DNA of 32,000 nt from Alkanindiges illinoisensis DSM 15370 (GCF_000619845.1 NZ_JHUX01000003.1:1720064-1752063); one strand, 5' to 3'; shown: positions 6,109 through 26,152, counted from the stretch's first letter. Numbers and translations are program-made. Notes: generated by a model not told the origin, from the sequence alone.

Positions 6109-6408
6109 CTAAGGCAAATGGCGGCCAACCGGGCTGGGCTGAACCTTATCTTCACTTTCCGCTGGTTGCTGGTTAGGCTGCTGACTGAGCACAGGTGTAA
6201 TCGGAATAATGTCCTGTTCTTGCTCTAATGGCTGTGCGTCCTCCTCTGGTGCATCGTCTAGCGCGCGTGGCGCTTCTATTTCCTCAATATGGGCGGGCTT
6301 TTCCTCAGGTTGTACTGGAATTTCATTTTGCTGTTGTTGCTGTTGCTGGTGAAGCAATGCCTGCTTGCGCAGTAAGTCATCATCTTTGTTCATGTTGGAC
6401 TCATCCAT
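6109..6408 (-). CDS. Acidic, Q/E/P-rich low-complexity protein (about 94-99 aa), hypothetical
   Basis: ORF with a poly-Q run (HQQQQQQQNE) and an acidic tail. An alternative ATG at 6393 is preceded by GGATGAG. The overlapping plus-strand ORFs look less plausible. Low-complexity content limits confidence. Confidence 0.4.
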   Translation of the reverse strand: MDESNMNKDDDLLRKQALLHQQQQQQQNEIPVQPEEKPAHIEEIEAPRALDDAPEEDAQPLEQEQDIIPITPVLSQQPNQQPAESEDKVQPSPVGRHLP

Positions 6409-6449
6409 TGATTGTAAATTAAGGGAAATGCGAGCTGTAAGTTAAAAAC

Positions 6450-6755
6450 TTAATCAGTAGTAGACTTAGCCTGCGTGGGAACAGGTGTAAGGATTCCCAG
6501 GGATTTTTCTGGTGTGGGGAGGTCTTGTAGTCTTTGTTGCAGGGAAGGCTGATTCCGGGTTAAACACTCCTGCTTGCCACTAGTGAGTCTGGACGCGCAC
6601 CTTGTGCCCAGCTTGCCCTGTTTGACGCAATTGGCAATTACTATATCGCTGAATAAATGGCAGTGTTTCTCCGGAGCTAATGGCGACCCATTTGCTGTCA
6701 GGGGGAAAAATACAATAATGCTGATTATTAAAAATAAGCGGACTTTAGTAGGCAT
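6450..6755 (-). CDS. Small secreted protein (101 aa) with four cysteines
   Basis: N-terminal signal peptide MPTKVRLFLIISIIVFFPLTANG. GGGAG SD about 10 nt upstream of the ATG. Four Cys in the mature part and a Pro/Thr-rich tail. Confidence 0.55.
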   Translation of the reverse strand: MPTKVRLFLIISIIVFFPLTANGSPLAPEKHCHLFSDIVIANCVKQGKLGTRCASRLTSGKQECLTRNQPSLQQRLQDLPTPEKSLGILTPVPTQAKSTTD

Positions 6756-6880
6756 GCTCTAGCACTCCCTATAATGATTATTATGGGAAACATGAGTGCT
6801 AGATAGAGATTGGAAGCATAACCACCTGTCAGGATGGCTATGCTACAAAAAAGAATAAAGTACTGATGTTAAATGAGTAA

Positions 6881-7357
6881 TTAACGGTTTTGCTTGCTGG
6901 TGAACTGGCCATCCTCGTCGCGAGGCTGGTTGGCATTATTGCCCCCACGGCCACCTTGCTGGTTACCACTATTACTATTACTATTGCTCTGGCTTTGCTG
7001 GTTACTACCGCCCTGGCCGCCCTGCTGGCCACCACTGCTATTGCTTTGGGTTTGCTGACCACCCTGGTTGCCATCATTTTTATGGCTCTGGCTGCCGGCT
7101 TCACGGGCTTCTTCAGCGCTAAACTCATGGGCATTGCCACTGGCATGAGCTGCACGTCCGCCTTCGCTGGCTATTTCACGCTGACGATCTGGGTCCATAC
7201 TGGCAAAGCCGCGGTTGGAGGTATCACCGTTACTACCAGATTGTTGCTGACCTTGACCGCCTTGCTGCTGATGCTGATTGCCCTGGCGGTTGTCATCATT
7301 TTTACTATTCTGGTTGCTACCACGATTATTACCTTGATTATTGGATTGATTAGCCAC
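6881..7357 (-). CDS. KGG-repeat general stress protein (YciG/GsiB-like), Q/N/G-rich hydrophilin-like
   Basis: The core GFASMDPDRQREIASEGGRAAHASGNAHEFSAEEAREAGSQSH matches the stress-induced KGG repeat pattern (GFAxMDxxxxREIAxKGGxxxH ... EFxxEEAREAGxKGG). It is flanked by long N/Q/G/S-rich disordered segments. Confidence 0.8.
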   Translation of the reverse strand: MANQSNNQGNNRGSNQNSKNDDNRQGNQHQQQGGQGQQQSGSNGDTSNRGFASMDPDRQREIASEGGRAAHASGNAHEFSAEEAREAGSQSHKNDGNQGGQQTQSNSSGGQQGGQGGSNQQSQSNSNSNSGNQQGGRGGNNANQPRDEDGQFTSKQNR

Positions 7358-7730
7358 ATTACACCTACCTTAGTTTGTTTAAGTTTTTAACCAGCTACTC
7401 TGGTCTTTCCAAGGTACGCTCCTTGCCCACTTACACTGTTGTTCAAATAAGACCTTATACCTGTTTTGGCAATGTCTGGGTAAAGAAGGTAAGCAGGCTT
7501 ATCTTGTTACAATCTAAATAGGCAGAAGGTTTAGTTAGTTAAGCTGTTTTATCACAGGGCAATAATTTGCGCTGCCTTACATTAAATACAAATACGGCCC
7601 AAAGCATTACACGAAGGCACTAAGAAAGTTTGAAAAATCCCTCAAACCTGGCTTCTGCTTTTACGTTGTTCTAGCTATTTGTGCTGGTTATTTATATTGG
7701 CTATTTGCAGGATTCATTACTATTAAACCC

Positions 7731-7763
7731 ACAAAACGGGTATCTCTATAAATCAAGATACCC
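7731..7763 (-). terminator. Rho-independent terminator after the BLUF-like gene
   Basis: 8-bp perfect stem gggtatct (7738-7745) / agataccc (7756-7763) with a 10-nt loop. On the minus strand it is followed by GTTTTGTGGGTTT. It starts 8 nt after the stop codon. Confidence 0.55.
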
Positions 7764-7770
7764 TGTTAAT

Positions 7771-8379
7771 TTAAGACATGGGTTTTACACTCTGGCCATT
7801 AAAGACGCCACAATGATAAAAGATGAAGCAAAGCAGGAAGAGCAGCACAATAAATGCAATAAACGCCAAGGCATGATAATAGGTTTCCAGCTGTTGTTTT
7901 GCGCTGGCCTCTTTATCCTGACTCTGTCTATCGAAATGCTGAAGATGATTGCCGGGTATCATTTTCCCATACTCTCTAAGCAAGGCATGACACTCATCAA
8001 GTAAAGCGCCTTCCAGGCGATAAGGGTTAAACTCTGAAAGCTGATATTTTAAAAACAGTTGTTTTAACCGTTCTTCTTTTAAAAAATATTTAACCTCCCA
8101 ATGGCTAAACCAGCGCTCATCAATAAGCTCGCGTTTTAATAATTTAACTTCCTTAAAAAAAGATCCCTGGATTGCATCTTCATAAATCTTGTCAATACAG
8201 GAAGCCGGCGCCTCAATGCAGTGAAAGAAATAATCATTGCCATATATTAATATTCCCGCCATTTCTCCACTGGCGGTATGTTTCTCAGCATCTTTTGTAA
8301 GGGTAATCAAATGCTCTCTGATCATGGAAGGTAAAGCTGTGGAGGTGCTCGCATACGATAGTCTCGTATAATGCGGCAT
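7771..8379 (-). CDS. BLUF-like domain protein with a C-terminal transmembrane anchor (degenerate flavin-site residues)
   Basis: The ORF track extends to a TTG at 8478. The ATG at 8379 has an AAGGA SD 5 nt upstream and gives MPHYTRLSYAS..., matching how short BLUF proteins begin. BLUF-like blocks: RLSYAS, GILIYGNDYFFHCIEA, IDERWFSHWEVKY (compare my recollection of BlsA: RLCYAS, GVLYYADNAFFQCLEG, FQRWSMKY). The C-terminus YYHALAFIAFIVLLFLLCFIFYH is a TM helix. Confidence 0.55.
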   Translation of the reverse strand: MPHYTRLSYASTSTALPSMIREHLITLTKDAEKHTASGEMAGILIYGNDYFFHCIEAPASCIDKIYEDAIQGSFFKEVKLLKRELIDERWFSHWEVKYFLKEERLKQLFLKYQLSEFNPYRLEGALLDECHALLREYGKMIPGNHLQHFDRQSQDKEASAKQQLETYYHALAFIAFIVLLFLLCFIFYHCGVFNGQSVKPMS

Positions 8380-8523
8380 TAGAATCCTTGAAGGTATGAG
8401 GATAAAATTATCCTGCTTTGTATTATACAGCACCTCTTTAGTATATTGATTATTTTTTATACTAAAATCACGACTCAAGTATCAGTTTTACGAATTACAA
8501 TGTCATTTCCACTATTGTTTGCA

Positions 8524-10707
8524 TTACACATTTTCTGTATTGCATAAGGCTAAAGGAACCATAAGATGCACTTCGGTTCCCTGTCCCGCTTTAGCAGCCT
8601 GAAACTCCAGTTGACCTTTTAATAAGATAATCCGTTGCCGCAGGTTAGCCAAACCATTGCCCGCTTGTTGTCCTGTTCCATTTACCGTTTCAGGGTTAAA
8701 ACCAGCACCATTATCCGCCAGACAAGTGTAAAGCTTGCCCTGCTTGTAAGTAATCTGGATGGACACCGCAGTTGCTTCTGCATATTTGATCAGATTGGTG
8801 ATCAACTCACGCAATATCGAACTGTAGTTTTTATAGACCTGATAATTGAGCTGAATCAATCCATCTTCAATATCAGTATGCCACTGTAGCGTCATCTGGC
8901 TTTCCTGCAAGCGCTGGCTAATCTCCTGCTGCAGCGCATTTACCACTGTTTCAAGCGCCAGACCTGCACCCGTCATGCCACTAATAATGGTACGCATATC
9001 TGCAATGGACTGCCGGATAATGTGTTTGGTCTGTTTAATATCCTGTTGATACAGTCCTGATAACAGTCTTGAGCCAATATCATCATGCAGGTCACGGGCA
9101 ATCCGGCTGCGCTCTTCACTGGCCCCCAGATCATAGGCATCCCGGGCTTGTAGCGCATAGTGCAGCATATGATATAGCTCATTTGCCAAGGCAAGATCAC
9201 TAGCAGCAAACAGGCGTCTGCCCGCTGCGGCATAATGCAATTGTGTTTGTGGCAAATAGCCAATTGCAGCAATACACAGTGTTATTCCTTCATTTTTAAT
9301 TTGCACCTGCGGCATATCGGCTGGTGATACGTTTTGTTCACTCTCAACATGCAGGGCATTAAACAGGTTTTTCAGCAATTGCTGCCAGGCACTAACAGTC
9401 TGATTATCGGCAGGGCTTAAAGAAAGGCTGACCACCTGCTGAAACAGCTTTTCCCGGTCTATCGAGCGACGGCGGGAAAATCGCCGTGCCAGCATATCGC
9501 GTAGTGGCAGGTAAATCAGGGCAACCAGTAACAAAGAAATTGCAAATGCAGGCGTCTGATCAATGGCCGTCACTACAATCAGCAGGGCATCCAGTGTCAC
9601 CAGCAAGAAAGCGCCCAACAGGTAAAACAGGATACGAAATACCCAGCCTTCCAGTTCAAACAGCTTATAACGTGCTACTCCCTGCACTACCCCGACATAA
9701 ATCAGCAGAAAAAACAGGAAAGCATAGCCCTGTGACATTGCTGCCTGCATTCCCAGCAGGCTTGGCATACTCATCAGCAGCACAGGAACACCTGCGCCAA
9801 GCGCAATCGCCAAAGCAAACCAGCGCAAGGCCGCCTGAGTAACCGGATCATATCTTGCCTTGCGGTATTGCAGCCAGCTCAAAAGCAGCATCAGGCTCAT
9901 GCCAATGAGCATTGGCATAAAGGCACCTACTGGAGGCCCTGAAAAAACCATCTTAAACATATCGCATAGCCACCAGCAGAATGCGCTGGCCGCAAACAAA
10001 ATTTGCAAGCCAGCAGGCAACAGGCGGGCGCTAGGATAGTTGGAAAACAGCAACACCAGTGCAATACTAAACAGTACGGCACCGGTATGGTTAGCGTTGG
10101 ATAACAGTTCAAATAAAGGCGCTGGTAAGGCAAGTACCCTACTGCTATAAATGGCTGCTGAAAATGCAGCGACCATAATGCAGCAACCAGCAATAAACAG
10201 GATGAGCGTGGTATAGCGCTTGGGCGTCATGCCCCATACCCAGCCGCCAATTAAAAAACTGCAAAGTCCCACCAGCATTTGCACCCAAAATACAGCAGCC
10301 AAACTTGTTAATGGCCGACTGGGTTCTACATTCAGCAGCATACGGCTACCATCGGCAAATTGCATAGTGATGTGCGATTGGCGTAGCAGGCTTGCGATGT
10401 GATGCTGACGGACAAAAAACTGCCTTCCTTGCGTATAGGTTTCCAGCTGGTCAGGGTCTTCTATCACATCCTGTCTGGTCAGTATTATCCTGTTCTGGCC
10501 ATCTGCGGCGGCAATGGACTGGATGACTTGCCCACGCTGTACACCCACCAGTGGTTTATTGATACGATCCACCACCACATGCTGCTGATCCAGCGTTAAC
10601 GTAAAACCAAACCAGGGCTGATTTAAGGCGATGTTAACCACAAATAATGTCATTGCTATGCCGGCAAGCAGAATACTCCACATGACAATAAAAGGCGTTT
10701 TGTTCAT
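8524..10707 (-). CDS. Multi-pass membrane sensor histidine kinase, HisKA_3 (NarX/LiaS-type) + HATPase_c
   Basis: N-terminal TM helix, an extracytoplasmic segment of about 110 aa, then about 8 hydrophobic helices. H-box EERSRIARDLHDDIGSRLL (HisKA_3), N-box LRELITNLIKYA, G1 DNGAGF, G2 GNGLANLRQR. Confidence 0.9.
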   Translation of the reverse strand: MNKTPFIVMWSILLAGIAMTLFVVNIALNQPWFGFTLTLDQQHVVVDRINKPLVGVQRGQVIQSIAAADGQNRIILTRQDVIEDPDQLETYTQGRQFFVRQHHIASLLRQSHITMQFADGSRMLLNVEPSRPLTSLAAVFWVQMLVGLCSFLIGGWVWGMTPKRYTTLILFIAGCCIMVAAFSAAIYSSRVLALPAPLFELLSNANHTGAVLFSIALVLLFSNYPSARLLPAGLQILFAASAFCWWLCDMFKMVFSGPPVGAFMPMLIGMSLMLLLSWLQYRKARYDPVTQAALRWFALAIALGAGVPVLLMSMPSLLGMQAAMSQGYAFLFFLLIYVGVVQGVARYKLFELEGWVFRILFYLLGAFLLVTLDALLIVVTAIDQTPAFAISLLLVALIYLPLRDMLARRFSRRRSIDREKLFQQVVSLSLSPADNQTVSAWQQLLKNLFNALHVESEQNVSPADMPQVQIKNEGITLCIAAIGYLPQTQLHYAAAGRRLFAASDLALANELYHMLHYALQARDAYDLGASEERSRIARDLHDDIGSRLLSGLYQQDIKQTKHIIRQSIADMRTIISGMTGAGLALETVVNALQQEISQRLQESQMTLQWHTDIEDGLIQLNYQVYKNYSSILRELITNLIKYAEATAVSIQITYKQGKLYTCLADNGAGFNPETVNGTGQQAGNGLANLRQRIILLKGQLEFQAAKAGQGTEVHLMVPLALCNTENV

Positions 10708-11239
10708 TGTATGGTATGCCCCACTTACCTTGTATAAAATAAATAATGAATAAAACAGATAGCATTTCTATCAATCTGGATAAAACTGTTTTATTTATTA
10801 AACATAAAATCGTTATGATAATGGATGAGTTGATTAATGGAAGCGCCTGTCAGTATGAAAGCCAACGACATCATGTTTCATTGCCTGCTGGGGCTTATAT
10901 TCATGCTGGTTATTTACGGGGGTTTGTTCAATGGTCAAGCCCAGCTGATGTCATTGCTTAAGCCTTATTAAACAATGGCTGAGGTAAGTTTTAAGCTATA
11001 ACACCCCTGCGCCTATCAGTGAATTACTGTCTACTACTGACCAGTGACTTGTCAAAAGCGGCTTCTGCCGTCTTTCGCCAGTTGCGGCAATACCAAAAAA
11101 TTAATCTATGTTGAGATTTATTGAGGCTGAATGAGACAGCAAAAAAGTTCTAATTAAGATCCCGATACCATTACGATTTTATTGAAACGCTTTAACAGCA
11201 AGGGTTTTGATCCTATTTGAGACGGCTTAAAACAGGCAT

Positions 11240-11266
11240 AAAAAAAGGTCACTCGGGTGAGTGACC
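11240..11266 (-). terminator. Rho-independent terminator downstream of tRNA-Met
   Basis: On the minus strand: GGTCACTC-ACCC-GAGTGACC followed by TTTTTTT, beginning 8 nt after the tRNA 3' end. Confidence 0.75.
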
Positions 11267-11273
11267 TATAAAA

Positions 11274-11350
11274 TGGTGGCTATGGCGAGACTCGAACTTG
11301 CGACCCCAGCATTATGAGTGCTGTGCTCTAACCAACTGAGCTACATAGCC
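11274..11350 (-). tRNA. tRNA-Met (anticodon CAU), elongator type, CCA encoded
   Basis: The reverse complement is GGCTATGTAGCTCAGTTGGTTAGAGCACAGCACTCATAATGCTGGGGTCGCAAGTTCGAGTCTCGCCATAGCCACCA. It has a fully paired acceptor stem and anticodon loop CTCATAA. It closely resembles E. coli elongator tRNA-Met rather than the initiator or tRNA-Ile2. Confidence 0.95.
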
Positions 11351-11363
11351 TTAAACTGTGCGC

Positions 11364-11392
11364 ATTATCATTATTTCTTCGACTGCCGTCAA
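11364..11392 (-). promoter_or_regulatory. Candidate sigma70 promoter for tRNA-Met
   Basis: Minus strand: TTGACG (11392-11387), a 17-nt spacer, then GATAAT (11369-11364). The -10 element ends 13 nt upstream of the mature tRNA 5' end. Confidence 0.55.
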
Positions 11393-11459
11393 GCCTATTT
11401 TCAGCGTGCGCGCATAAAAAGCAGGCAAATAAACCAAATTGTTTTCAGTAATCAGGCTT

Positions 11460-11819
<360 letters not shown>

Positions 11820-11876
11820 AAGGCGCGCATGGTAACAAAAAAAACAGCCTTGCGCTGTTACTTTTCAAAGGTTTTT

Positions 11877-12152
<276 letters not shown>

Positions 12153-14653: not shown

Positions 14654-16267
14654 ATGTCTCATCAGTCCGAGCTGATTAGCCAGGATATTTTGGCCTATTT
14701 AAAGCAGCATGAACAAAAAGACCTGCTCCGCTTTTTAACCTGCGGTAATGTGGATGATGGTAAAAGCACCCTCATTGGCCGCCTGCTGTATGATTCAAAG
14801 CTGATCTATGAAGATCACCTGCAAGCCGTTACCCGTGACAGTAAAAAAGTGGGTACTACTGGTGATGCTCCTGACTTGGCGCTGCTGGTTGATGGCCTGC
14901 AAGCTGAGCGCGAGCAAGGTATTACCATTGATGTGGCCTACCGTTATTTCTCCACTGAAAAACGCAAGTTCATCATTGCTGACACGCCGGGACATGAACA
15001 ATACACCCGCAACATGGCCACTGGTGCTTCTACCTGTGACCTTGCCATTATTCTGATTGATGCGCGATATGGGGTACAAACCCAGACCCGCCGTCACAGC
15101 TATATTGCTGGCCTGCTGGGCATTAAGCACATTATTGTGGCAATCAATAAAATGGACTTGCTGGAGTATTCCCAGACTCGTTTTGATGAAATTAAACAGG
15201 ATTACCTGAATTTTGTTGACCAGTTAGGCAACCGCAAGCCCAGTGAAATTCACTTCGTGCCGATGTCTGCATTGAAGGGCGATAACGTGGTTAACCCATC
15301 AGAACATACGCCATGGTATACCGGCCAGACCCTGATGCAGATTCTGGAAACTGTGCAGATCAACCGGGATACGGCCAAGCGTGATTTCCGCTTCCCCGTA
15401 CAGTACGTGAATCGTCCAAATCTGGATTTCCGCGGTTTTGCGGGTACTGTCGCCTTGGGCTCGGTGCGCGTGGGTGATGAAATTGTAGCGCTGCCATCAA
15501 ACAAGCGCAGCACTGTTAAGGAAATTGTGACCTATGATGGTAACCTGCAACAGGCCTTTGCCGGGCAAGCTGTTACGCTGACTTTGAATGATGAAATTGA
15601 CATTAGCCGTGGCAACATGCTTACCCATGCCGAGAGTGCACCGCTGATTTCACGTGCGGTACGGGCCACTGTAGTGTGGATGACTGAACAGCCACTGGTT
15701 AAAGGCAAGCTGTATAATATTAAGGTTGGTACTCAAAGCGTACCAGCCATTGTCAGCCAGATTAACTACCGCGTTGATGTGAACACGCTGGCACAAAATG
15801 CTGCCGAGCAGGTTGAACTCAATGGTATTGCCGATGTAGTGGTGGAGTTTGACGCGCCCATTGCTTTTGATCGCTATGCCGATAGCCGTTATACCGGCGC
15901 GTTTATCTTTATTGATCGCCTGAGCAACGTCACTATTGGCGCAGGCATGATTGAAGATTCAGTGCAACTGTCTGATCAACAGCGTCCAGTCAGCGCTGAA
16001 GAGCGTGCAGCCCGTCTGGGTCAAAAACCCGCAGTTTTAGCATTGCCATCTAACTTGCTTGGTCAAACTGAAGCTTTAGAGCGACAGTTATTGCAGCGCG
16101 GTATTGTTTCTATTGCTACTGCTAAATTGAATGATCATGAAGCTGCTTTACTGCGCAATACAGGCATCACCGTATTAATAAGTGAGCAAGCTCAGGCTGA
16201 CTCCACAGTGACAGCAACAGTGCTTGAAGAAGCAGTTGAGCAAATTGTTGAATTTGTCAGGCTATAA
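14654..16267 (+). CDS. cysN: Sulfate adenylyltransferase subunit 1 (GTPase) with a C-terminal extension of about 100 aa
   Basis: GTPase motifs GNVDDGKST (G1), DTPGH (G3) and NKMD (G4), plus EF-Tu-like domains II and III. The extra tail is discussed in the findings. Confidence 0.95.
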
Positions 16268-16321: not shown

Positions 16322-17650
16322 TTAGCAGAAAGTACGACCACCATAGCAGTTTGGAGCAAAATCTTGTTTCACTAACTGTAAATTATTTAACGGCATAGAA
16401 GCATGCTGAGCATTTATTAAATCGACTGTACCCACTGGAATGGCACTGCCCAGAAGGCAGCTTGTAGCAGCTAATTTTCCACACTGCACGGGATTATCAT
16501 CCAGATAGTTACTTACTTGTCTAAAAGCTTCATTTAAAGTGGCCTTTGGAATATCAACTGTCTCTACAGGATCAATTTTACCTATCTCAACCGGATTAGA
16601 GAATTCCAGCCACCAACCTCGCTGCGCCACAGATTTTGCTCCTGGCCATTTAATATCTTGCGATTGCAATGATAACGAGGCAGGAGTGCCATTTAAATCA
16701 ATCTTGTGAAACAGACCTAAATTTTCATTAATAGTTGCATCTACTTTTAAATTTTTAATAAGTCCTGTTGTTGTCTTATCATTTAGGCCGATGAATCCTG
16801 CAGCTTGTGCACTAAGAGTACCACTTAAGTCAATATCTCGCACCGTAGCAGTTGCATATAAAGTAGCACTATTTATTCGTCTTCCAGTAATGGCTTGCTG
16901 AGGTAAATCTAAATCACCTTTTAAGATATTACTACCTGTAGCTTTGTCACGAAGATTCAAATTATAAGCAGTTGTTTTAAAGTTTAGAGGGATGAAGAGC
17001 GCACAGCAAGCTTTACCAGTAATTGCATCATACCCATCAGATTGCTTTAACTGACCTCTAGCCGCTTCCCCCGCTACCATACTATCACCAAAGCCATTCA
17101 CCAATGCCGTCCCTGTAGTTTGCGCGACTTCCAGGTAACCACTTAGCCGATTAATACCATTCAGCTGATTAGAATTCTCTGTACCAAAAGTTAACATGCC
17201 AATGATTTTCTCAGCGCTTAACCTAATGCCCGCTAACTCTCTAGTAGATGCACTTGTAGGGTTTTTAATCGCTAATTGAATAAATGGGTTGGTGAGAACG
17301 GCTGAAGAACTAGCTCGGCCATCACTCGTTTCAGAAACCCCACTTAAGCTTAAATTATCGATATCAATGTCACAGGCGCCTGCTCCGTTAACTCCTCCAC
17401 AACCCAACTGTAGTTTCTTTATATTTGCATTTAATTCTACTTCTGCCTCTAATCCTAACTTATAAAGACCAATTCCTGAGTTAGAATTTCCAGTCTGGCC
17501 AGGTGCCTAATAAGACAAATTGAATAAAGCTTGACCTGATTGAGCGGCAAGTTCTTCATCATTGAGAGGATGCAAAGTAGTAGTTGCATAAGCTACTCCC
17601 AGACTATTTATAAGCATGAGAGCACTCAGCCCTGTCCGTTTTAGAATCAT
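16322..17650 (-). pseudogene. Third paralog (F) of the secreted CYGGxTFC-terminal family, interrupted by an in-frame TAG at codon 48
   Basis: The track ORF 16322..17407 starts at an internal TTG. In the same frame, upstream sequence back to ATG 17650 reads MILKRTGLSALMLINSLGVAYATTTLHPLNDEELAAQSGQALFNLSY*APGQTGNSNSGIGLYKLGLEAEVELNANIKKLQLGCGG. This is colinear with paralog E (…LFNLSYLAPGQAGNP…). The stop is TAG at 17509..17507, where E has TTA. Confidence 0.8.
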
Positions 17651-17782
17651 TTTATCTACCATTCCGTTTGGGATAGTGGGTTATTATTTATACAATAGCA
17701 AATTTTGATTTTTATCAAATTGGCATAAGAAGACTCTTTTTATATTTAATCTATAATTTTTGCCTATATGATTACAAAAAGT

Positions 17783-17808
17783 AAAAAAGCGGCTAATGCC
17801 GCTTTTTT
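17783..17808 (-). terminator. Rho-independent terminator after paralog E
   Basis: AAAAAAGCGGC-TAAT-GCCGCTTTTTT, 8 nt after the stop codon. It is nearly identical to the terminator at 16281-16306. Confidence 0.8.
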
Positions 17809-17815
17809 ACTATAA

Positions 17816-19333
17816 CTAACAATAGGTTATTCCGCCATAGCAAGTACGATAAGCAGGTTCCAAGCCCACAATGTTCCCATCACGAGCATTACTACTTTGC
17901 AATATATTATTAATTAAACCTTGTTGAGTGATAGTACCAGCTGAATTATATTGAGTAGCCACAGGACTATTAATATTTAAAGTAAATGCATCTGGCATAT
18001 ACATCGACCAACCTCTAGCTACAGCTGCTGCATAACCGGGATACTGGATACTTCGTTGCTGTAAAGATAACCCAAATAGAGGTGAATCAACATTTGCCTG
18101 ATGGAGATTTGATACATTATAAGGAAGAATATAACTATTCAAATCAGCATGAATTTGTTCATCTGATTTTCCATTAATAGTAGTCTGATTGCTTGTCGAA
18201 TTTGAATTATAAATTAATAAACCTTGAGCTAGCTGTCGTTTAATTTGATCAGCGATACCTCCACGTAATAAAGGCAATAATGTAGGTCCAAAAGCTCCAA
18301 CTAAAGCTCCTGCATCAGAGTCACTTAATTCTAGGGGACTTGCTCCTACTGTCGTACTTCCATCAGTATTTCCATACACGATACTATTTACAACACCAGC
18401 TAAATTAATACCTGCTAACTGAGCTTGGGTTTGACGGTTACCGTTTAATAATACTCCAATGCCAGTACGATTAACCGTTTGATAACTAACCAATGCTTCT
18501 TGATAGCGGATATGAGCTAATCCAATATCCAAAATCATATCATCCCCCAAACCTAAATATCCTCCAGAAGGCGTGCCTTTTCCGCCTCGAACACCTGTAA
18601 AAATATTTCCTGTTTGAGGAGCACCCCAACTGCTTGCTCCATTATTACGAATTCCAGAAGTATTAGCGCCTGGAGCTATACAACTTGCTGGATAACGACA
18701 TGTAACAGCAACATTATCACCACCAATCATTGAAAGATTAGCGGTCACTGTTAAATATCCGCTGAAACTATTGATTTGACCAAAACTCATGGGGCCTTTA
18801 ACATTAGAAGCACCTATTCTAATTCCTACCACTTCCCGAGTAGATGCAGTATCAGGATCTTTAATAGCAAATTGAAAGAAAGGATTTGTTAAAACAAAAT
18901 CTTTCATCTGTGACTGATTGGCTATTGAATTATCAGTTACTGCGCCATCAATTTGATTTCCTGTCTTAGGAAGAGAAATACATGTACCAGCACTATTAGC
19001 AATGCATCCTAGTGAAAAATTATCAATATCTAAATCACATCCATTGGCACCATTTATACCACCACAACCTGCTTGGAGCTTTTTAATGTTAGCATTTATG
19101 CTTAATTCAGCTTCCATACCTAGAGTATAAAATCCTATTCCTGACCCACTAGTCATAGGATTACCAGCTTGTCCAGGCGCTAAATAAGACAAGTTGAATA
19201 AAGCTTGCCCAGTTTCAGCTGCAAGAGCCTCGTCATCTAAAGCTTGCAAAGTAGAATCTGCATAGACTGTATTACTAATGCTTAATATAGTAAAACTAAT
19301 ATAGACTATTAAGTTAATTATTGTTTGCCACAT
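17816..19333 (-). CDS. Secreted G/N/S/T-rich protein, paralog E (505 aa from ATG 19333); possibly FilE/F-like
   Basis: The track ORF starts at GTG 19366. The ATG at 19333 has an AAGGA SD 8 nt upstream and gives the signal peptide MWQTIINLIVYISFTILSISNTVYA|DSTLQALDDEALAAETGQALF. Four closely spaced Cys pairs. Ends in TCYGGITYC-COOH. Confidence 0.85.
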   Translation of the reverse strand: MWQTIINLIVYISFTILSISNTVYADSTLQALDDEALAAETGQALFNLSYLAPGQAGNPMTSGSGIGFYTLGMEAELSINANIKKLQAGCGGINGANGCDLDIDNFSLGCIANSAGTCISLPKTGNQIDGAVTDNSIANQSQMKDFVLTNPFFQFAIKDPDTASTREVVGIRIGASNVKGPMSFGQINSFSGYLTVTANLSMIGGDNVAVTCRYPASCIAPGANTSGIRNNGASSWGAPQTGNIFTGVRGGKGTPSGGYLGLGDDMILDIGLAHIRYQEALVSYQTVNRTGIGVLLNGNRQTQAQLAGINLAGVVNSIVYGNTDGSTTVGASPLELSDSDAGALVGAFGPTLLPLLRGGIADQIKRQLAQGLLIYNSNSTSNQTTINGKSDEQIHADLNSYILPYNVSNLHQANVDSPLFGLSLQQRSIQYPGYAAAVARGWSMYMPDAFTLNINSPVATQYNSAGTITQQGLINNILQSSNARDGNIVGLEPAYRTCYGGITYC

Positions 19334-19507
19334 ATTCTTTATCCTTGAATATGGAGATAGGATCACAATAACTTAACAAATTTTGACCAAAATAGGAATA
19401 AGAATACGATAGATGATATGTTTTTTTACATATCATAACCTGTATTATTAAAAATAAGACTTGGTTCTTATGTTCTAATAAATAAAGTCTATAGTATTAT
19501 ATATACT

Positions 19508-20608
19508 CTAACAAAATGTTAGGCCTCCATAGCAGTTGTCCACTGGAGTTTGTCCTAAATCTACTGCATCTAGATTTACTGGAATACCTAATGCACCGCT
19601 GCCCGCTTCAATCAAGCCTAATTGGACTTCCTGAGTAATCGTTAAATTACTAACCTGAGTTTCAGGAATAGATAACCACCAACCCTTCTGTGCTGCTGTG
19701 GTATTCCAAGTGCCATCCCCCACCTTTTGCCAATTTATAGCTTGACTCTGTAATGATAAATACGCATTGCTAGTCGCTGTACCATCAGCATTAGCTACAA
19801 TCAACTGGTGTACAGTACTATAAGGAATGTTATTCATGTTTACATTGGATAATGTTAAACCTAATAAGCTTGAAGAAGCTTTCGCACTCATGCCAGTCAA
19901 ATTAAAGCTAGAACTACGATTGGCTAACAATGTGGTTGCATAATTTGCTACAGTTGCAGAACCACTTAAAGCCAGCTGACACCCTCCAAAAAGCTGGAAA
20001 GTACAAGCTTTTACATTATTTAATACAGCATTTGTTACTGTGACACCAATATCACCACTTAAGCTATTAATACCTGTATCATCACTTAATGATGCTGTAT
20101 TGGCATTACTACCGAAACTCATCTTGCCTAATGCTGATAAAGCGCCTAAACGCAGGCCTACCATTTCACGTGTAGATGCAGAATCAGGATTTTTAATGGC
20201 AAATTCAATAAAAGGATTATTTAATAAAAAGTCAGTGCCTGGCCCAGAATCAGTATCACTTGTTGCATCAACCCCGGTAAGACGTACCTGGTCAATGTCA
20301 ATATCACAGCCAACGCCTTTGGAGCCACCACAGCCTAACTGTAACTTATTAACGTTGGCATTTAGTGCAATTTCACCTTCAACGCCCAATCGATAAAATC
20401 CTATATCTGTATTAGGATTACTTGACTGATTTGGTGCAATATAATTTAAATTTAGTAATCCCTGACCTGTTTCTTGGGAAAGCTCATCATCATTTAATAG
20501 TTTTAAGTTTGATGCTGCGTAACACTCTACTGCAAGCATACTTAAGCTCAAAGTGATACTACTCATTATTATTGTACGACTTAACATTACTGACTTAATA
20601 CCAGACAT
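19508..20608 (-). CDS. Secreted G/N/S/T-rich protein, paralog D (366 aa from ATG 20608); possibly FilD-like
   Basis: The track ORF starts at TTG 20623. The ATG at 20608 is preceded by GAAGGAAAC. Signal peptide MSGIKSVMLSRTIIMSSITLSLSMLAVECYA|ASNLKLLNDDELSQETGQGLL. Shares NPFIEFAIKNPDSASTREMVGLRLG and GWWL blocks with E and F. Ends in NCYGGLTFC-COOH. Confidence 0.85.
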   Translation of the reverse strand: MSGIKSVMLSRTIIMSSITLSLSMLAVECYAASNLKLLNDDELSQETGQGLLNLNYIAPNQSSNPNTDIGFYRLGVEGEIALNANVNKLQLGCGGSKGVGCDIDIDQVRLTGVDATSDTDSGPGTDFLLNNPFIEFAIKNPDSASTREMVGLRLGALSALGKMSFGSNANTASLSDDTGINSLSGDIGVTVTNAVLNNVKACTFQLFGGCQLALSGSATVANYATTLLANRSSSFNLTGMSAKASSSLLGLTLSNVNMNNIPYSTVHQLIVANADGTATSNAYLSLQSQAINWQKVGDGTWNTTAAQKGWWLSIPETQVSNLTITQEVQLGLIEAGSGALGIPVNLDAVDLGQTPVDNCYGGLTFC

Positions 20609-20805
20609 GTTTCCTTCATCCAATGTTCCATCTGACGAGTGATATTAGGGCAGGAACTTGTACTAAAGGTGGACTCATGCTGCCGTATTGTTTAGCTTAA
20701 GTAAAATTTATCCATTTATGATTCATATTTCCTAAATTAAGCAGATTTATTGAAAAAATATTCATTCTAATGAGTAAATAATATTATAGAAATTAATTAT
20801 ATAAC

Positions 20806-20841
20806 TGTTAAAAATAAAGCCGAATCTTTATAGATCCGGCT
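20806..20841 (-). terminator. Rho-independent terminator after the 772-aa gene
   Basis: Minus-strand RNA: AGCCGGAUC-UAUAAA-GAUUCGGCU, a 9-bp stem with one G-U pair, followed by UUAUUUUUAAC. It lies 25 nt after the stop codon. Confidence 0.6.
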
Positions 20842-20865
20842 CATATAAAATTAGAAATCTAGAAT

Positions 20866-23184
20866 TTAATTACGCGGAACAATTGTCATATTGGCATTTA
20901 ATCTACCGCCAGTAATGACCATCTCGCCTAAACGCTGAGCATTTCCACCGGAAGGATACATATTAATATCTTTTACACGGAAAACTTCTGTAGCTAGTTT
21001 ATTTGGATTAAAATTAAGACCAAAATTAAAGCCAACATTATCCTTGTTAACTACAATGGCATTATCAAAACCAATTCTACCTGATAGGTTATCCAATCCC
21101 AGAATCGAACCGTCAACTGGTTCTACAATCTGTATTGCACCACTATCTACCAAATAGGAACCAACAAATCCTAAACGGTTAGCTCCATCTTGTGGGCCTG
21201 AAAGAGAACCTGCTTCACTAGGAACCAAAGCAAAATTCATATCTCCATTTAGTTTAATTTTCAAACCAAACAGTACATCAGTTTTCTGAAGGAAATTATT
21301 AATTGGCGAATAATAGTTCGTACCCACTGTTTTAGATTTTGCGCCTGGTAAATAACCTGCAGCAATCTCTGCCGACATCGCCATCAATAAATTGGGTAAT
21401 TTTACGTTCAATTTGCCATTTTCTACGCCAATACTACCGTATCCTTTGAGATACATATCAATATTACGCAACCCAAAATAATAATCGGTTGGATTATTAC
21501 CATCATTGGCATTTGGCCCACCATCAATCAAAAAGATAGATGTGGTTTTACTTCCGGCAATTGCACCATTGGCATCCAAACCAGTACTACCTACTTCCTT
21601 ATTGACACCTTGTGTACTCAATGCAGCTGCAAAACCCAAGCGCTCAGAATTTGTAACACTTGTGCCATCTGGCAACAAACCAGTATAGGTTGTTCCATAG
21701 GTAGCAATATTGGCATTTAAATTATAGATTGGTAAGCCAATACCCCACTGCCCTACAGTGGTGGTTGGTATATTTGCAGCACCAGTAATATCATTACTTG
21801 CAATAAAACGTGCTTGCCGTGCTAACGCCTGGAACTCAAGACCACGGACACCTATAACCACGCTATATGGATTAGTAGCATCACCATGTATTTGCTGGGT
21901 ATAGTCAGTTGTTTTTGTTAAGTAATCACTATTACCAATTTTGGATGTATTTAGGACATCGTTGGCAGGCATGTTCAAAGTTTTTGTATTTGCAAGATTA
22001 ATATACACATCGCCACTGTCAAAATATGCACGACCTGTATTTAACCCACCATTAACTGCTGTACGTGTTAAGAGCGGTGTTAATTTACCAAATTCCACAC
22101 CATACGCATTCTTACCTGCACCGCCCAACTCTAATGTAGTAGGTGATCCGCCCCCTGCATCTGCAGCATCCCGTGTAAATTCACCTTTCATTCTTATTGC
22201 AATACCAGTACTGCCAATAATACTGGCATTGGTACCACTGGTCGGGCTAGTTGCATTATTAGATGCAAACCCTAGAGCAGGATTTGCTACATCTCGTGCA
22301 TCAGTACCACGAACAACTAAATAAGCATTTTTCATGCGGCCACTAGCACCCGCACGAATAATTCCTTTGGCATTATCTGTATTATAAGTACCAGCAGTTA
22401 CATTGGACTTATGCATAAACTCAAGATTTAAACCAGAGTTCGTTCCTCCAAAAGTACCACCTGTATATTGAGGATCATTAACCCGAGTAAAATCAACATA
22501 CCCGGTTGAACCTGTTTGTAAGCGTAAACCTCCAGAATCGCTAACAAACATATTACCTTTACCATAGAAATTAAAATTAAAATTTCTCATAATCAACTGA
22601 TTGGTAACACTTGCGCTTTGTTTCTGACCCAAGTAAATATTGATATTTCTTAGGCCCAAGGTTAATTCAGCCTGGCCAGCTTCACTAAATAAACCATTTT
22701 GGCTATTTAAATGAAACTGTACGGGTGTGCTGGACTGGATTGCCATGCTACCAATACTGGGGCCACAGTTCCCACCTGATCCATTACAGATCTGAAAACT
22801 ATCAGCAGCTACAGTACCTAAGGTTGAATTTACATCCAGATCTATACCAGCTGTAGTCCCGTTACTACCCGTATTAATCTTAATTTCTGTTCCGATTTTT
22901 TGTCCTGCAACAGCCGGCGTAATAGAAATGCCATTGGCATAACCGCGCAAGGTTTCTTCAGTATTTCCGGCAGTACCGGTTTTATCTTCCCAATACACCT
23001 TATCAACATCAATTCGGTCATATTCAGTGCCAATATAGATGCCATCCTGACCATCTATTTTGCGCATATCCTGTTCATTCATTTCCTGTAACGCGTACGC
23101 AGGCAGCTGCATTATCATTAAACTGCTGGCTAAAGTAGATAATGCAAATTTGCGAGAAGTTACATTTTTAAATGTCATGGCCAT
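20866..23184 (-). CDS. Large secreted/outer-surface protein C (772 aa), unknown function; possibly FilC-like
   Basis: Signal peptide MAMTFKNVTSRKFALSTLASSLMIMQLPAYA|LQEMNEQDMRKIDGQDGIY. G/N/T/S-rich with alternating beta-like patterns. Only two Cys, in ICNGSGGNC. Starts 20 nt after gene B. Confidence 0.85.
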   Translation of the reverse strand: MAMTFKNVTSRKFALSTLASSLMIMQLPAYALQEMNEQDMRKIDGQDGIYIGTEYDRIDVDKVYWEDKTGTAGNTEETLRGYANGISITPAVAGQKIGTEIKINTGSNGTTAGIDLDVNSTLGTVAADSFQICNGSGGNCGPSIGSMAIQSSTPVQFHLNSQNGLFSEAGQAELTLGLRNINIYLGQKQSASVTNQLIMRNFNFNFYGKGNMFVSDSGGLRLQTGSTGYVDFTRVNDPQYTGGTFGGTNSGLNLEFMHKSNVTAGTYNTDNAKGIIRAGASGRMKNAYLVVRGTDARDVANPALGFASNNATSPTSGTNASIIGSTGIAIRMKGEFTRDAADAGGGSPTTLELGGAGKNAYGVEFGKLTPLLTRTAVNGGLNTGRAYFDSGDVYINLANTKTLNMPANDVLNTSKIGNSDYLTKTTDYTQQIHGDATNPYSVVIGVRGLEFQALARQARFIASNDITGAANIPTTTVGQWGIGLPIYNLNANIATYGTTYTGLLPDGTSVTNSERLGFAAALSTQGVNKEVGSTGLDANGAIAGSKTTSIFLIDGGPNANDGNNPTDYYFGLRNIDMYLKGYGSIGVENGKLNVKLPNLLMAMSAEIAAGYLPGAKSKTVGTNYYSPINNFLQKTDVLFGLKIKLNGDMNFALVPSEAGSLSGPQDGANRLGFVGSYLVDSGAIQIVEPVDGSILGLDNLSGRIGFDNAIVVNKDNVGFNFGLNFNPNKLATEVFRVKDINMYPSGGNAQRLGEMVITGGRLNANMTIVPRN

Positions 23185-23204
23185 AATCCCTGAACCAATA
23201 TTTA

Positions 23205-23801
23205 TTAACAGCGTGGATGAGAACTGTCACAACTGAATATTTTGATAGTACCTGCTACTGAAAGATTGCCGTTAATCATCAGGCCGGTAAAACCCTTTTC
23301 GCGATTGGCATCAAATCCTGCAGTTGTATATGTCCCTGTGGCCAAATAGCCAGGAATATTACCTGCCCCTTCATTCGCAACGGTATCTGTTTCAATAGAC
23401 ACTGAATTAAAGCCAACATTACGGAACTGAATCGGTTTTAATGGATTAAAACTTAACTGGATAGCAGGTTTAACGGTCGAACCGTAAATAAGGTCAACAC
23501 CATCCAGTGCAACTTGTTGAATATTAATCGTCCCCTGAATCCCTTTAAACACTAGCCAAAGCTTTTTTCCATCAGTCGTAGAACGATTATTTAATGCAAT
23601 ACCCAGACGACAGAATTTTAGGTCACTACATAACGTGGTATCAAAAACGCCAGGACTAGACTGGTTCAAGGATAAATTCAAACTGATATCTGCACCTGCC
23701 TGCCCTTCAACTTGCTGCAAGTCGGTATTATTCAGTGGCTCAAGTGCAGCATTCACTGAAGCTGACAGCAATAAAGAAGATAATAAAATTACGGTTTTCA
23801 T
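23205..23801 (-). CDS. Small secreted protein B (198 aa), unknown function; possibly FilB-like
   Basis: Signal peptide MKTVILLSSLLLSASVNA|ALEPLNNTDLQQVEGQAGADI. AAGGA SD 7 nt upstream. Cys pairs LCSDLKFC and terminal SCDSSHPRC-COOH. Starts 9 nt after gene A. Confidence 0.85.
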   Translation of the reverse strand: MKTVILLSSLLLSASVNAALEPLNNTDLQQVEGQAGADISLNLSLNQSSPGVFDTTLCSDLKFCRLGIALNNRSTTDGKKLWLVFKGIQGTINIQQVALDGVDLIYGSTVKPAIQLSFNPLKPIQFRNVGFNSVSIETDTVANEGAGNIPGYLATGTYTTAGFDANREKGFTGLMINGNLSVAGTIKIFSCDSSHPRC

Positions 23802-23810
23802 CTTATATCC

Positions 23811-25202
23811 TTATAAGCCTTTAGTCGTAAACTTCAGATGCTGAATCAACAAGCCATCAATGACTGCTGAACCTAAATTGGTAGTTGTGCCTGTACCATT
23901 ACTAAAGGTAATTCCTTTTGCATCGGCAGCGGTGCTGGCAGTGATTGTCCGACTGGTATTGTTATAAACCACATCACCCATGGTAATACTACTATGAGTA
24001 GCATTATTGCCCTGGTAGGTTGCATTAGCCACACCATCAACCTTACTGCCACAGTAAAACTGACTACAGGTTGAACCTAAGTAAGTAGTATCTGCAGGGT
24101 TGGCATAATTGGTATAAATCTGATTATAAATACTTGCCTTATTTGGAATTCTGGCAATTTCCAAAGTAATATTTTGCCCATCAGTGCCTAGTACCAGTGG
24201 CTGATATAAACTACCCAGTACTAAGTTAATATTGGGTTTATAAATATAAATACCTTCCTTGTCATTAAAGGTTGGTGCAACGCCGCCATTAATAGCTGGT
24301 GTATCCAATAAACCTGAATTACTTGAAGTAGCTGTTTCCTGGGTACTCAAACGTAAAACGCCAGCATCATTACTATTAAAGCGTAATAAACCTGATAAGC
24401 CTAAGGTATTGTTATAAAATGTACTCATTCCACCAGTGTTAGTTGCTCCACCAAGCGTTTGGAACATTTTTATATTGCTGCCATTAATACTTAATCCGTC
24501 CCAGATCGCCTGTAACCGGAGACGGTTGGCACGGCCAGCTCCACCAAGATTAAATTGTGTGCCTGTTGCGCTCATATTTTCAACAACGCTGGGATCTCGC
24601 ACAAATGCATCAGCCCAAAAACCCAGTTTCAGGTTATAGGCACTTTTTTCAGCATCCGAAAGGCCAGCAATATTGGCATGGTATAGTGGTGCTTCCAGAT
24701 TTAAATAACTTACGCTATAGGTGCCACTGTCTGTTGTGGAAAAATTAGGAATACCACTATCTGTAGTTACTTTCAAAAGCCATGGGTTGATGGCACTTCC
24801 CCATGAATCAATTGTTCTGGAAAATCTGGAGTTTGTATCGGTACTATCTCGTGCTGCATTATAGGCTTTGTTAGACTGAGAAATTGCCAAACCATACATA
24901 AAGACATCGGCTTTACCCGCACCACTGGCAGCAGCGGTAGCGGTTAAAGGACCTACAGGAATCAGGCGAATATAACCAGTATCATAAGTGCCAGCGCCAC
25001 TATTATTTGTATCAGCACCATTTAAACGTATTGAGGCATTTTCTGGCAAAAAAGCAATCCCTTCACCTGTAGAATCGGCCAGACTATCATCATCCAGTGC
25101 TTCAAGTGCAAAACCACGAGACGACATTAAAGAAAGGCCGATGGATAGTGCCAACGCACTGAGTCTAAAACCAGATTTAACGCGTAAACGTAGATGAGAC
25201 AT
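23811..25202 (-). CDS. Secreted protein A (463 aa), unknown function; possibly FilA-like
   Basis: Signal peptide MSHLRLRVKSGFRLSALALSIGLSLMSSRGFA|LEALDDDSLADSTGEGIAF. GAAGGAAGG SD upstream. N/G/S/T-rich with a single Cys pair, TCSQFYC. Confidence 0.85.
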   Translation of the reverse strand: MSHLRLRVKSGFRLSALALSIGLSLMSSRGFALEALDDDSLADSTGEGIAFLPENASIRLNGADTNNSGAGTYDTGYIRLIPVGPLTATAAASGAGKADVFMYGLAISQSNKAYNAARDSTDTNSRFSRTIDSWGSAINPWLLKVTTDSGIPNFSTTDSGTYSVSYLNLEAPLYHANIAGLSDAEKSAYNLKLGFWADAFVRDPSVVENMSATGTQFNLGGAGRANRLRLQAIWDGLSINGSNIKMFQTLGGATNTGGMSTFYNNTLGLSGLLRFNSNDAGVLRLSTQETATSSNSGLLDTPAINGGVAPTFNDKEGIYIYKPNINLVLGSLYQPLVLGTDGQNITLEIARIPNKASIYNQIYTNYANPADTTYLGSTCSQFYCGSKVDGVANATYQGNNATHSSITMGDVVYNNTSRTITASTAADAKGITFSNGTGTTTNLGSAVIDGLLIQHLKFTTKGL

Positions 25203-25582: not shown

Positions 25583-26152
25583 TCAGGCTTTAGGTAAAGT
25601 TACCCCAATCTGCCCCTGATACTTGCCGCCACGGTCTTTATAGCTGGTTTCACAAACTTCATCACTTTCGAAAAACAGCATTTGTGCCACGCCTTCACCT
25701 GCATAAATACGTGCTGGCAGGTTGGTGGTATTGGAAAACTCCAGTGTGACATGGCCTTCCCACTCTGGCTCTAGTGGTGTGACATTTACAATAATACCGC
25801 AGCGCGCATAGGTAGACTTGCCAAGACAAATGGTGAGTACATTACGTGGAATGCGGAAGTATTCAACGGTACGTGCCAAGGCAAAAGAGTTAGGTGGAAT
25901 GATACAAACATCGGATTCAATATCAATAAAGCTTTTTTCGTCAAAATTCTTGGGATCGACAATGGCTGAATGTACATTGGTGAAGACTTTAAACTCACGC
26001 GCACAGCGCACATCGTAGCCATAACTGGACACACCATAAGAAATCAGCTTTTGTCCATTGCCATCCAGACGCACCTGATTGTCGGCATAGGGTTCAATCA
26101 TGCCATGTTTTTCGCTCATTTCACGAATCCAGCGATCCGATTTAATGCTCAT
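25583..26152 (-). CDS. dcd: dCTP deaminase
   Basis: 189 aa. [22 protein letters not shown]...[17 protein letters not shown]...[33 protein letters not shown] is full-length Dcd and very close to my recollection of Acinetobacter Dcd. Confidence 0.95.

Follow-up and report, generated by a model that had tools for sequence, protein, structure and literature searches.

Introduction

What is the role of six neighboring genes whose products all carry the same short segment directly behind a secretion signal? This question is raised by a block of six minus-strand open reading frames (ORFs), termed A to F, between cysN and dcd of Alkanindiges illinoisensis DSM 15370, which we analyzed as part of a stretch of 32,000 nucleotides (NZ_JHUX01000003.1:1720064-1752063; hereafter the window). 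An earlier note on this DNA had described six consecutive minus-strand genes from dcd to cysN for proteins exported by the general secretory (Sec) pathway, and their coordinates and sizes are borne out (Table 1) with the correction that gene F contains a stop codon. It had also called these proteins functionally uncharacterized, in agreement with the names of their database relatives, which are always "hypothetical" or "DUF6160 family protein", and with our literature searches (some queries dominated by unrelated words), which found no mechanistic study of DUF6160 or of the related Fil proteins of Acinetobacter.

The wider interest of the block lies in the C39 peptidases of the periplasm. FapD of Pseudomonas is such an enzyme and is essential for the secretion of Fap proteins, yet its substrate is unknown and the Fap proteins lack canonical C39 sites [PMC5557850]. 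The recognition sequence and substrates of periplasmic C39 peptidases such as FapD are thus an open question [PMC5557850], which a family of Sec-exported proteins with an explicit, conserved leader of the double-glycine (GG) type would make directly testable in tractable Acinetobacter. We propose, with a probability of roughly 45%, that the proteins of the block are cargo whose predicted GG-type leader would be read in the periplasm by a pathway of the Fil or Fap kind. More generally, the block probably encodes cell-surface cargo for a pathway that is encoded elsewhere, not a self-contained system.

One N-terminal segment on otherwise different proteins

All six products start with a Sec-type signal peptide that ends in an AxA-like site, and 0-4 residues past the cleavage site follows, in 6/6 proteins, a 15-residue motif (Phi-x-x-Phi-[DNST]-[DE]-x-x-[LM]-x-x-x-x-G-[QE]). 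Elsewhere in the window, the corresponding regular expression matches only twice in 14,118 ORF residues, both times internal to cytoplasmic proteins. Among the proteins from 80 related loci described below, 75/77 A, 71/77 B, 70/81 C, 111/113 D/E/F-type, and 54/56 FilA-like sequences carry the motif. The earlier observation of Sec signal peptides followed by a common motif therefore stands both for the window and for most orthologues. Mature cysteines come in close pairs, as had been noted before: Every one of them has a partner 1-9 residues away in the six window proteins, and a partner is found within 12 residues for 87-100% of the cysteines from ca. 390 orthologues compared to 7-33% for shuffled positions, with an even number of cysteines in ca. 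100% of proteins. A C-terminal Cx5-9C loop is found in 75/76 B and 108/111 D/E/F-type proteins. Such close pairing suggests that the mature proteins would be oxidized in the periplasm.

D, E, and F are mutually paralogous (E = 1e-43 to 1e-55) and B resembles the N-terminal half of this type, while a profile-profile comparison of the C and D families aligns nothing besides the signal peptide and the motif-bearing segment, in the following called the leader. This fits the earlier description of a motif common to otherwise different proteins, and a single segment shared by these two families is what one typically sees when unrelated cargo bears a tag for targeting or processing. Viewing all six proteins as homologous pilins was rejected, given that paralogy is limited to D/E/F (and partly B) and that the leader is the common part of C and D.

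Scans against Pfam and NCBIfam (E <= 0.1; five full-length proteins and the 361-residue C-terminal ORF of F) returned DUF6160 alone from Pfam and weak FilA matches alone from NCBIfam, i.e., nothing from well-characterized systems, and detected no chaperone, usher, ATPase, sortase, or secretion-system domain in these proteins; Pfam domains Peptidase_C39 and Toluene_X are likewise absent from the block. B (30.0 bits) and C (32.0 bits) pass the gathering threshold of DUF6160 (PF19657; 27 bits), and A (13.5), D (18.0), and E (13.5) match below it in the same N-terminal region. When leader peptides were searched in isolation, 100/150 matched DUF6160 in Pfam.

AlphaFold models of C and D, built from alignments of 62 and 66 sequences, are both all-beta, with a predicted local distance difference test score (pLDDT) of 87.6 and a predicted template modeling score (pTM) of 0.85 for C and values of 86.1 and 0.79 for D. 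In both models the motif forms a short helix on leader positions -10 to -5 (residues 37-42 of C), and its low pLDDT suggests that this helix is not packed into the fold. The N-terminal donor strand that had been expected is thus not seen in these monomer models. Foldseek searches with C and D found nothing in the PDB at E <= 0.001 (best E for C 0.019, template modeling (TM) score <= 0.13), a search of the BFVD viral library with C found nothing at E <= 0.001 either, and family profiles of C and D match no PDB sequence even at E <= 10. The PDB matches of the C model, TonB-dependent receptors and LptD, are non-significant and not superposable, and the protein ends in ...TIVPRN without a C-terminal aromatic beta-signal. 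We therefore rejected the suggestion of the earlier note that C could be a divergent usher (or an outer-membrane barrel), considering also that it shares the leader of the other five proteins.

The leader resembles those read by C39 peptidases

We tabulated 313 non-redundant leaders, counting positions back from the residue after the conserved Gly as -1. The pattern used to collect them restricted positions -15, -12, -11, -10, -7, -2, and -1 and left -16, -8, -6, and -4 free. Among the free positions, -16 is Ala in 57% of leaders (the signal-peptidase -1 residue), -8 is acidic in 49%, -6 is Ser, and -4 is T/V/I. At the restricted positions we find L/M at -15 and -12, S/D/T at -11, D at -10 (83%), L/M at -7, and G at -2 (94%, and at least 90% in a looser leader collection too), followed by Q (81%), E (18%), or G (1%) at -1. 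C39 recognition follows the rule Leu-12-X3-Glu-8-Leu-7, with a two-turn helix that puts -4, -7, and -12 in the groove [PMC6363468]. The leaders of the block conform to Leu(-12)-X3-Glu(-8)-Leu(-7) and have hydrophobic residues at -4 and -15 as well as Gly at -2, though -15, -12, -7, and -2 are partly imposed by the collection pattern. After signal-peptidase cleavage, the new N-terminus is predicted to be an acidic amphipathic segment of 15-19 residues. As far as sequence patterns can tell, the leader shows the recognition pattern of double-glycine leaders.

Besides FilA, the leading NCBIfam match of 150 leader peptides is TIGR01847 bacteriocin_sig (8/150 at E <= 1, best E 0.017), next to two type-2 lantibiotic families (2 each), lactococcin G-beta (1), and one family of precursors of ribosomally made peptides with post-translational modifications (1); none of these families matches the reversed peptides. 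In Pfam, the same number of peptides gave Mersacidin (5), Bacteriocin_IIc (1), and ComC (1). B of the window reaches 13.7 bits with TIGR01847, whose cut-off is 15.7, and the B-type protein of an Alcanivorax relative has a canonical double-glycine leader (...ELQSVSGG, then D).

Leaders of this kind and a hypervariable locus would also fit polymorphic toxins or large bacteriocins that use double-glycine leaders. We consider this highly improbable since Pfam and NCBIfam reveal no immunity gene, toxin domain, or ATP-binding cassette (ABC) transporter, the latter being absent from the entire window, and since the four-protein architecture of the locus is conserved across orders. Furthermore, the leaders follow Sec signal peptides and do not sit at the N-terminus of a cytoplasmic precursor.

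Relation to the fil operon and its machinery

The same leader is found on FilA (MQSMDDAALSAATGQ), a DUF6160 protein of the Acinetobacter fil operon. In A. baumannii, this operon encodes FilA (289 aa), a C39 peptidase (279 aa), a "pilus assembly" outer-membrane protein (398 aa), an outer-membrane transporter (556 aa), FilE (430 aa), and the lipoprotein FilF (641 aa) [PMC4751259, Supplementary Table S3]. In the operon of A. nosocomialis GNU001, FilB is assigned to Pfam Peptidase_C39 and displays two conserved motifs, QAYDYSCGSAAL with the predicted active-site Cys and FKHFVVY with the predicted His. Outside Fil, it matches FapD (108 bits, E 3e-31) and the double-Gly protease LahT150 (PDB 6mpz, E 9e-6) best. 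FilC matches the FapF transporter (E 1e-15), and FilD is a FadL/TodX-type barrel. FilB and FilC remain below the Fap equivalogue cut-offs (108 vs 330 bits for FapD, 57 vs 700 bits for FapF), and no window protein matches any Fap family in Pfam or NCBIfam. Given the C39 peptidase and the FapF-like and FadL-like barrels of the fil operon, the premise of the earlier note that Fil lacks machinery was wrong.

The order FilA-B-C-D-E-F is seen in 80/80 metagenomic fil loci, where FilA precedes FilB in 65 and the other 15 contigs start at FilB. A leader-bearing FilA with FilB downstream is a genomic link of the leader to a C39 peptidase. In the unclassified metagenome-assembled genome (MAG) GCA_029945725.1 (L089 7894-17638), three tandem FilA genes are followed by FilB (C39), FilC, FilD, FilE (with Pfam FilE_C), and a FilF-like gene, and the operon lies downstream of a Chorismate_bind-family gene (probably pabB). 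A metagenome scan with FilB recovered only close Acinetobacter-like fil operons (67-97% identical), without wider taxonomic reach.

How does the block itself relate to fil? No window protein reaches the Fil cut-offs of NCBIfam (NF050077-NF050081, NF033645). On the FilA model (cut-off 220 bits), C scores 45 bits and A and B 14 bits, with no match for D, E, and F, compared to 332 bits for a true FilA. Residues 11-232 of C align with FilA residues 2-224 (29% identity, E 9e-13), i.e., over nearly all of FilA, so that C can be described as a FilA-like domain extended by 540 aa. The genome of A. nosocomialis GNU001 contains a dcd module as well as fil, with the fil operon ca. 100 kb from the dcd module and adjoining a Chorismate_bind-family gene (probably pabB). 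The block was therefore rejected as a fil operon since it scores below the Fil cut-offs, lacks FilB-F, and has another genomic location. Of the earlier idea that the block is the filA-F locus or a relative, the relationship survives (C vs FilA) and the identity does not, and the supposed position of fil next to dcd turned out to be wrong for A. nosocomialis. As a side observation, FilE of this species (L081 8684-9982) carries ca. 17 Thr-Ala-Pro repeats (TAPTAPTAP...) between its signal peptide and C-terminal domain.

Under the pathway that we favor, the block proteins would be exported by Sec, cleaved by signal peptidase, and oxidized at their cysteine pairs in the periplasm. There, a FapD-like C39 peptidase (FilB) may read the leader and would probably remove it after G-Q/E, as predicted from the motif. 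Processing might be coupled to passage through the FapF-like and FadL-like outer-membrane barrels (FilC, FilD) that the separate fil operon encodes. At the cell surface, the cargo could then build or decorate a FilA-type fiber or layer, which C would join via its FilA-like N-terminal domain, with the fast-evolving D/E/F paralogues as putative variable exposed parts. A bolder and more tentative proposal, which we hold to be possible but somewhat doubtful, is that the DUF6160 segment is a new class of secretion or processing signal, i.e., a double-glycine-type leader behind a Sec signal, read by periplasmic stand-alone C39 peptidases of the FapD/FilB type, that directs a dispersed regulon of large, folded proteins with disulfide bonds and novel fold (FilA, A, B, C, D/E/F) through FapF-/FadL-like barrels to the surface.

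The products might instead be adhesins or matrix proteins that leave the cell through a general route, for instance type II secretion, with the motif as a pro-segment or chaperone handle unrelated to C39. Sec signals, disulfides, and large folded beta domains agree with this idea, as folded, oxidized proteins suit type II secretion better than a narrow FapF-like pore, and it would fit that dedicated machinery is not adjacent. However, type II substrates are not known to have a conserved linear N-terminal signal, and such export would not account for the strict register in which the motif occurs, for its invariant G at -2, or for the linkage of FilA to FilB, which makes this route unlikely in our view.

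A conserved module with variable parts

A genome scan recovered a conserved module in 80 loci. Each of these belongs to Moraxellaceae or to an unclassified MAG, with Acinetobacter, Alkanindiges, and Agitococcus among the genera represented. The gene order is kept as dcd, 0-4 D/E/F-type genes, A, B, C, and 0-1 D/E/F-type genes. A FilA paralogue follows C in 56/80 loci and FilB-F in none; this FilA-like gene (ca. 320 aa) comes next in most Acinetobacter loci and is missing from the window. A profile of C found just 266 relatives among 1.84 billion representative proteins, and distant relatives occupy the same four-type module (A, D/E/F, B, C), including metagenomic contigs with 46-55% G+C. In Alcanivorax (CP051253.1), the module lies near oriC between mnmE and cho (locus coordinates 6394-12118) and encodes an A of 531 aa, a D/E/F-type protein of 444 aa, a B of 221 aa, and a C of 705 aa. 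The block is thus one copy of a conserved "DUF6160 module", composed of an A-B-C operon and a variable number of D/E/F-type paralogues.

Searches by tblastn found no FilB-F homologues in the window, nor in the 10 kb around each of the 80 dcd-type loci, and a Pfam-annotated gene table of the Alcanivorax locus with 10 kb on either side lists no C39 peptidase and no outer-membrane barrel. The earlier statement that no machinery is present in or beside the cluster can be extended accordingly to the surroundings of all these loci.

Distant B-type proteins (L083 2348-3100, L086 97-741, L087 3390-4055) end in ...FYLYGF, ...FISGF, or ...FLYGF, and those of Moraxellaceae end in a Cx6-7C loop instead of such an aromatic terminus. 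Judging from the resemblance of these distant ends to the outer-membrane beta-signal, B might form a small membrane barrel or act as an anchor.

Between two A. illinoisensis strains (the window and NFYY 23406), nucleotide identity is 91-94% in the flanks and 65-72% in the cluster, and NFYY 23406 has a single D/E/F-type gene compared to three in the window, with D/E missing. The G+C content of the entire block is 0.34-0.41 vs 0.46-0.50 in the flanks; an A+T-rich composition had previously been noticed for D-F in comparison to cysN and dcd, which is correct but applies to the whole block. Low identity between strains, gain and loss of paralogues, and low G+C together are the usual signature of exposed surface structures. 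These features, along with the FilA-like domain of C, speak against proteins that never leave the envelope and remain periplasmic or associated with the outer membrane, e.g., as parts of an envelope scaffold for which the motif would be a tag of retention or assembly. Sequence directly implies export to the periplasm only, and FilF was recovered from outer-membrane fractions, not fibers [PMC3203104, PMC4751259]. On balance, we regard retention in the envelope as decidedly unlikely.

Weighing the proposed pathway

Several observations weigh against a C39-dependent pathway for the block proteins. The residue at -1 is Gln or Glu and not G/A/S, and every leader match to hidden Markov models lies under the curated cut-offs. 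No gene for a C39 peptidase or barrel is found in the window, within 10 kb of the 80 loci, or beside the Alcanivorax module. FilF homologues (154 clusters) are almost confined to Acinetobacter, with one Moraxellaceae MAG among the matches listed, which is narrower than the range of the module. FilB starts with only a short uncharged hydrophobic segment, so that its presumed periplasmic location is deduced by analogy with FapD. Finally, folded and disulfide-bonded cargo may not fit a FapF-like pore.

Because of these weak points, real weight must be left to a self-contained system of the kind imagined in the earlier note. Here, A, B, D/E/F, and C would form a fiber or layer using only general machinery, namely Sec, Dsb, and the beta-barrel assembly machinery (BAM), with the uncleaved N-terminal segment docking into a neighboring subunit or else into C or A. 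The four-type module recurs as a compact cluster flanked by housekeeping genes, even in hosts that are only very distantly related (Moraxellaceae at dcd, Alcanivorax near oriC, metagenomic contigs), never with machinery next to it (80 loci and Alcanivorax), and one member could be a membrane anchor or pore in light of the beta-signal-like ends of distant B-types (...FYLYGF/...FLYGF). But strand-exchanging homologous subunits usually share an acceptor fold, whereas C- and D-types share the leader alone; the docking or strand-exchange motif postulated earlier is helical and acidic in our models, no beta donor strand, and its sequence pattern is that of a peptidase leader with matches to the corresponding models. 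Furthermore, FilA has the same segment and adjoins a C39 peptidase wherever the contig allows, and C has no barrel-like structural match. We therefore see self-docking as a serious alternative, though a doubtful one, and prefer export as cargo of a Fil/Fap-like pathway.

Gene organization of the block and its surroundings

The genes, their leader-coding segments, and putative transcription signals are listed in Table 1. A, B, and C, D and E, and F probably form three transcription units, as suggested by terminator-like hairpins, while promoter-like sites are no more frequent across the region than in shuffled sequence. Protein A has a single Cys pair (379/384) and a conserved C-terminus ending in LIQHLKFTTKGL, and B has two pairs with Cx6C at the terminus. 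In C, which is 100% identical to an NCBI protein from A. illinoisensis, the FilA-like N-terminal domain (ca. residues 47-232) precedes ca. 540 all-beta residues of unmatched fold. Three Cys pairs are found in D (C-terminal NCYGGLTFC) and four in E (C-terminal TCYGGITYC).

Table 1. Positions of the block, its leaders, and neighboring features in the window (leader-coding segments: positions -15 to -1).
Feature	Position	Strand	Remarks
Gene A	23811-25202	-	463 aa; opens conserved A-B-C operon; leader LEALDDDSLADSTGE, aa 33-47
Gene B	23205-23801	-	198 aa; DUF6160 protein; leader LEPLNNTDLQQVEGQ, aa 20-34
Gene C	20866-23184	-	772 aa; leader LQEMNEQDMRKIDGQ, aa 32-46
Gene D	19508-20608	-	366 aa; D/E/F-type paralogue; leader LKLLNDDELSQETGQ, aa 35-49
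Gene E	17816-19333	-	505 aa; D/E/F-type paralogue; leader LQALDDEALAAETGQ, aa 29-43
Gene F	16322-17650	-	442 codons; D/E/F-type paralogue; leader LHPLNDEELAAQSGQ; broken by in-frame TAG
Flank dcd	25583-26152	-	
Flank cysN	14654-16267	+	
Leader-coding segment of A	25062-25106	-	
Leader-coding segment of B	23700-23744	-	
Leader-coding segment of C	23047-23091	-	
Leader-coding segment of D	20462-20506	-	
Leader-coding segment of E	19205-19249	-	
Leader-coding segment of F	17531-17575	-	
Intrinsic-terminator-like hairpin directly after C	20817-20842	-	11-bp stem + T-run; would end A-B-C unit
Promoter-like site upstream of D	20783-20811	-	11/12 matches
Intrinsic-terminator-like hairpin directly after E	17780-17811	-	14-bp stem + T-run; would end D-E unit

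The stop codon of gene F (TAG at 17507-17509) is codon 48, where paralogue E has Leu (NLSY-stop-APGQ vs NLSYLAPGQ). An independent assembly of SRR3313971 is identical to the window over 14.6 kb and has F called as 47 aa + 361 aa, so that the stop is real in the reads and no assembly error. Gene F is a nonsense allele or pseudogene, and the 361-aa ORF downstream of the stop lacks a signal peptide.

The rest of the 32-kb window contains no export or assembly machinery and holds an autotransporter N-terminus, a histidine kinase, coaD, smpB, RNase P RNA, cysD/N, dcd, mrp, and metG. At 1-2082 (minus strand) lies the N-terminal part of a large protein whose gene leaves the window at its left end and which begins with an ESPR-type extended signal peptide, typical of autotransporters and trimeric autotransporter adhesins. 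RNase P RNA (class A, 335 bits; 11456-11819) and a tRNA gene (11277-11350) are both on the minus strand between the histidine-kinase gene and coaD. Two further minus-strand genes are unrelated to the cluster. One encodes a lipoprotein of 246 aa that has several cysteines and a linker rich in proline (2277-3017), the other a Gly/Asn/Gln-rich protein of 158 aa whose core resembles YciG/KGG stress proteins (GFASMDPDRQREIASEGG; 6881-7357).

Implications

If the DUF6160 segment does act as a secretion or processing signal, it would be the substrate signal that has long been sought for periplasmic C39 peptidases and define a two-locus organization of cargo and machine in Moraxellaceae and Alcanivorax. 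Fil, which supplies vaccine candidates and pellicle/biofilm markers of A. baumannii, would be recast as a Fap-like secretion machine with a candidate cargo set much larger than FilA alone. Confident cargo models without a PDB analogue and the hypervariability between strains suggest unexplored surface structures, i.e., possible antigens, adhesins, or phage receptors.

From an ecological perspective, hosts of the module are often hydrocarbon degraders: Many of them degrade hydrocarbons or lipids (Alkanindiges, Alcanivorax, Acinetobacter venetianus and baylyi, a diesel-enrichment Moraxellaceae isolate, and Agitococcus). Barrels of the FadL/TodX and "Phenol_MetA_deg" types are also encoded by the fil operon. 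It is possible, as pure speculation, that the module has a role in contact with hydrophobic substrates.

Comparison with known systems

Chaperone-usher pili and curli resemble the block in their clustered Sec-dependent subunits of surface fibers and in an N-terminal targeting segment (Nte and the N22 of CsgA, respectively). However, the block lacks a PapD-like chaperone, an usher, and homologues of CsgG/E/F (Pfam), its motif is no donor strand as in chaperone-usher pili, and structural searches with C find no usher.

The double-glycine leaders found on class II bacteriocins, lanthipeptides, and quorum-sensing peptides, which are processed by the C39 domains of PCAT/AMS transporters, have hydrophobic residues at -15/-12/-7/-4, an acidic residue at -8, Ser at -11, and Gly at -2 in common with the leaders described here. 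Both form a short helix from about -11 to -4 (for the block, in predicted models) and are attached to unrelated cargo. The leader of the block differs in that it follows a Sec signal, so that it would be read in the periplasm, in Gln/Glu at -1, in a cargo of 200-800 aa proteins instead of peptides, and in the absence of an ABC transporter.

The fil operon of Acinetobacter (A1S_0690-0695, "putative pilus system") is itself known only from annotation, pellicle/biofilm proteomics, and vaccine work. FilA has the same signal peptide and leader (DUF6160) and corresponds to the N-terminal 220 aa of C in the window, and most dcd modules of Acinetobacter include a FilA paralogue. Unlike fil, the block has no FilB, FilC, FilD, FilE, or FilF and a different genomic location, and its A, B, and D/E/F types have no counterpart there.

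Several features separate the block from the Fap system of Pseudomonas (FapA-F): Its cargo carries an explicit GG-like leader, whereas Fap substrates have no canonical C39 site, and consists of large cysteine-stapled proteins that are predicted to fold confidently instead of amyloid subunits with N/Q repeats. Moreover, the cargo genes of the block lie apart from machinery genes, and fil has additional components in FilE, the lipoprotein FilF, and a barrel of the FadL type. Yet both feature secreted beta-rich surface proteins, and the route that we propose for the block would be that of Fap, leading from Sec via a periplasmic C39 peptidase (FapD, similar to FilB) to an outer-membrane barrel (FapF, similar to FilC).

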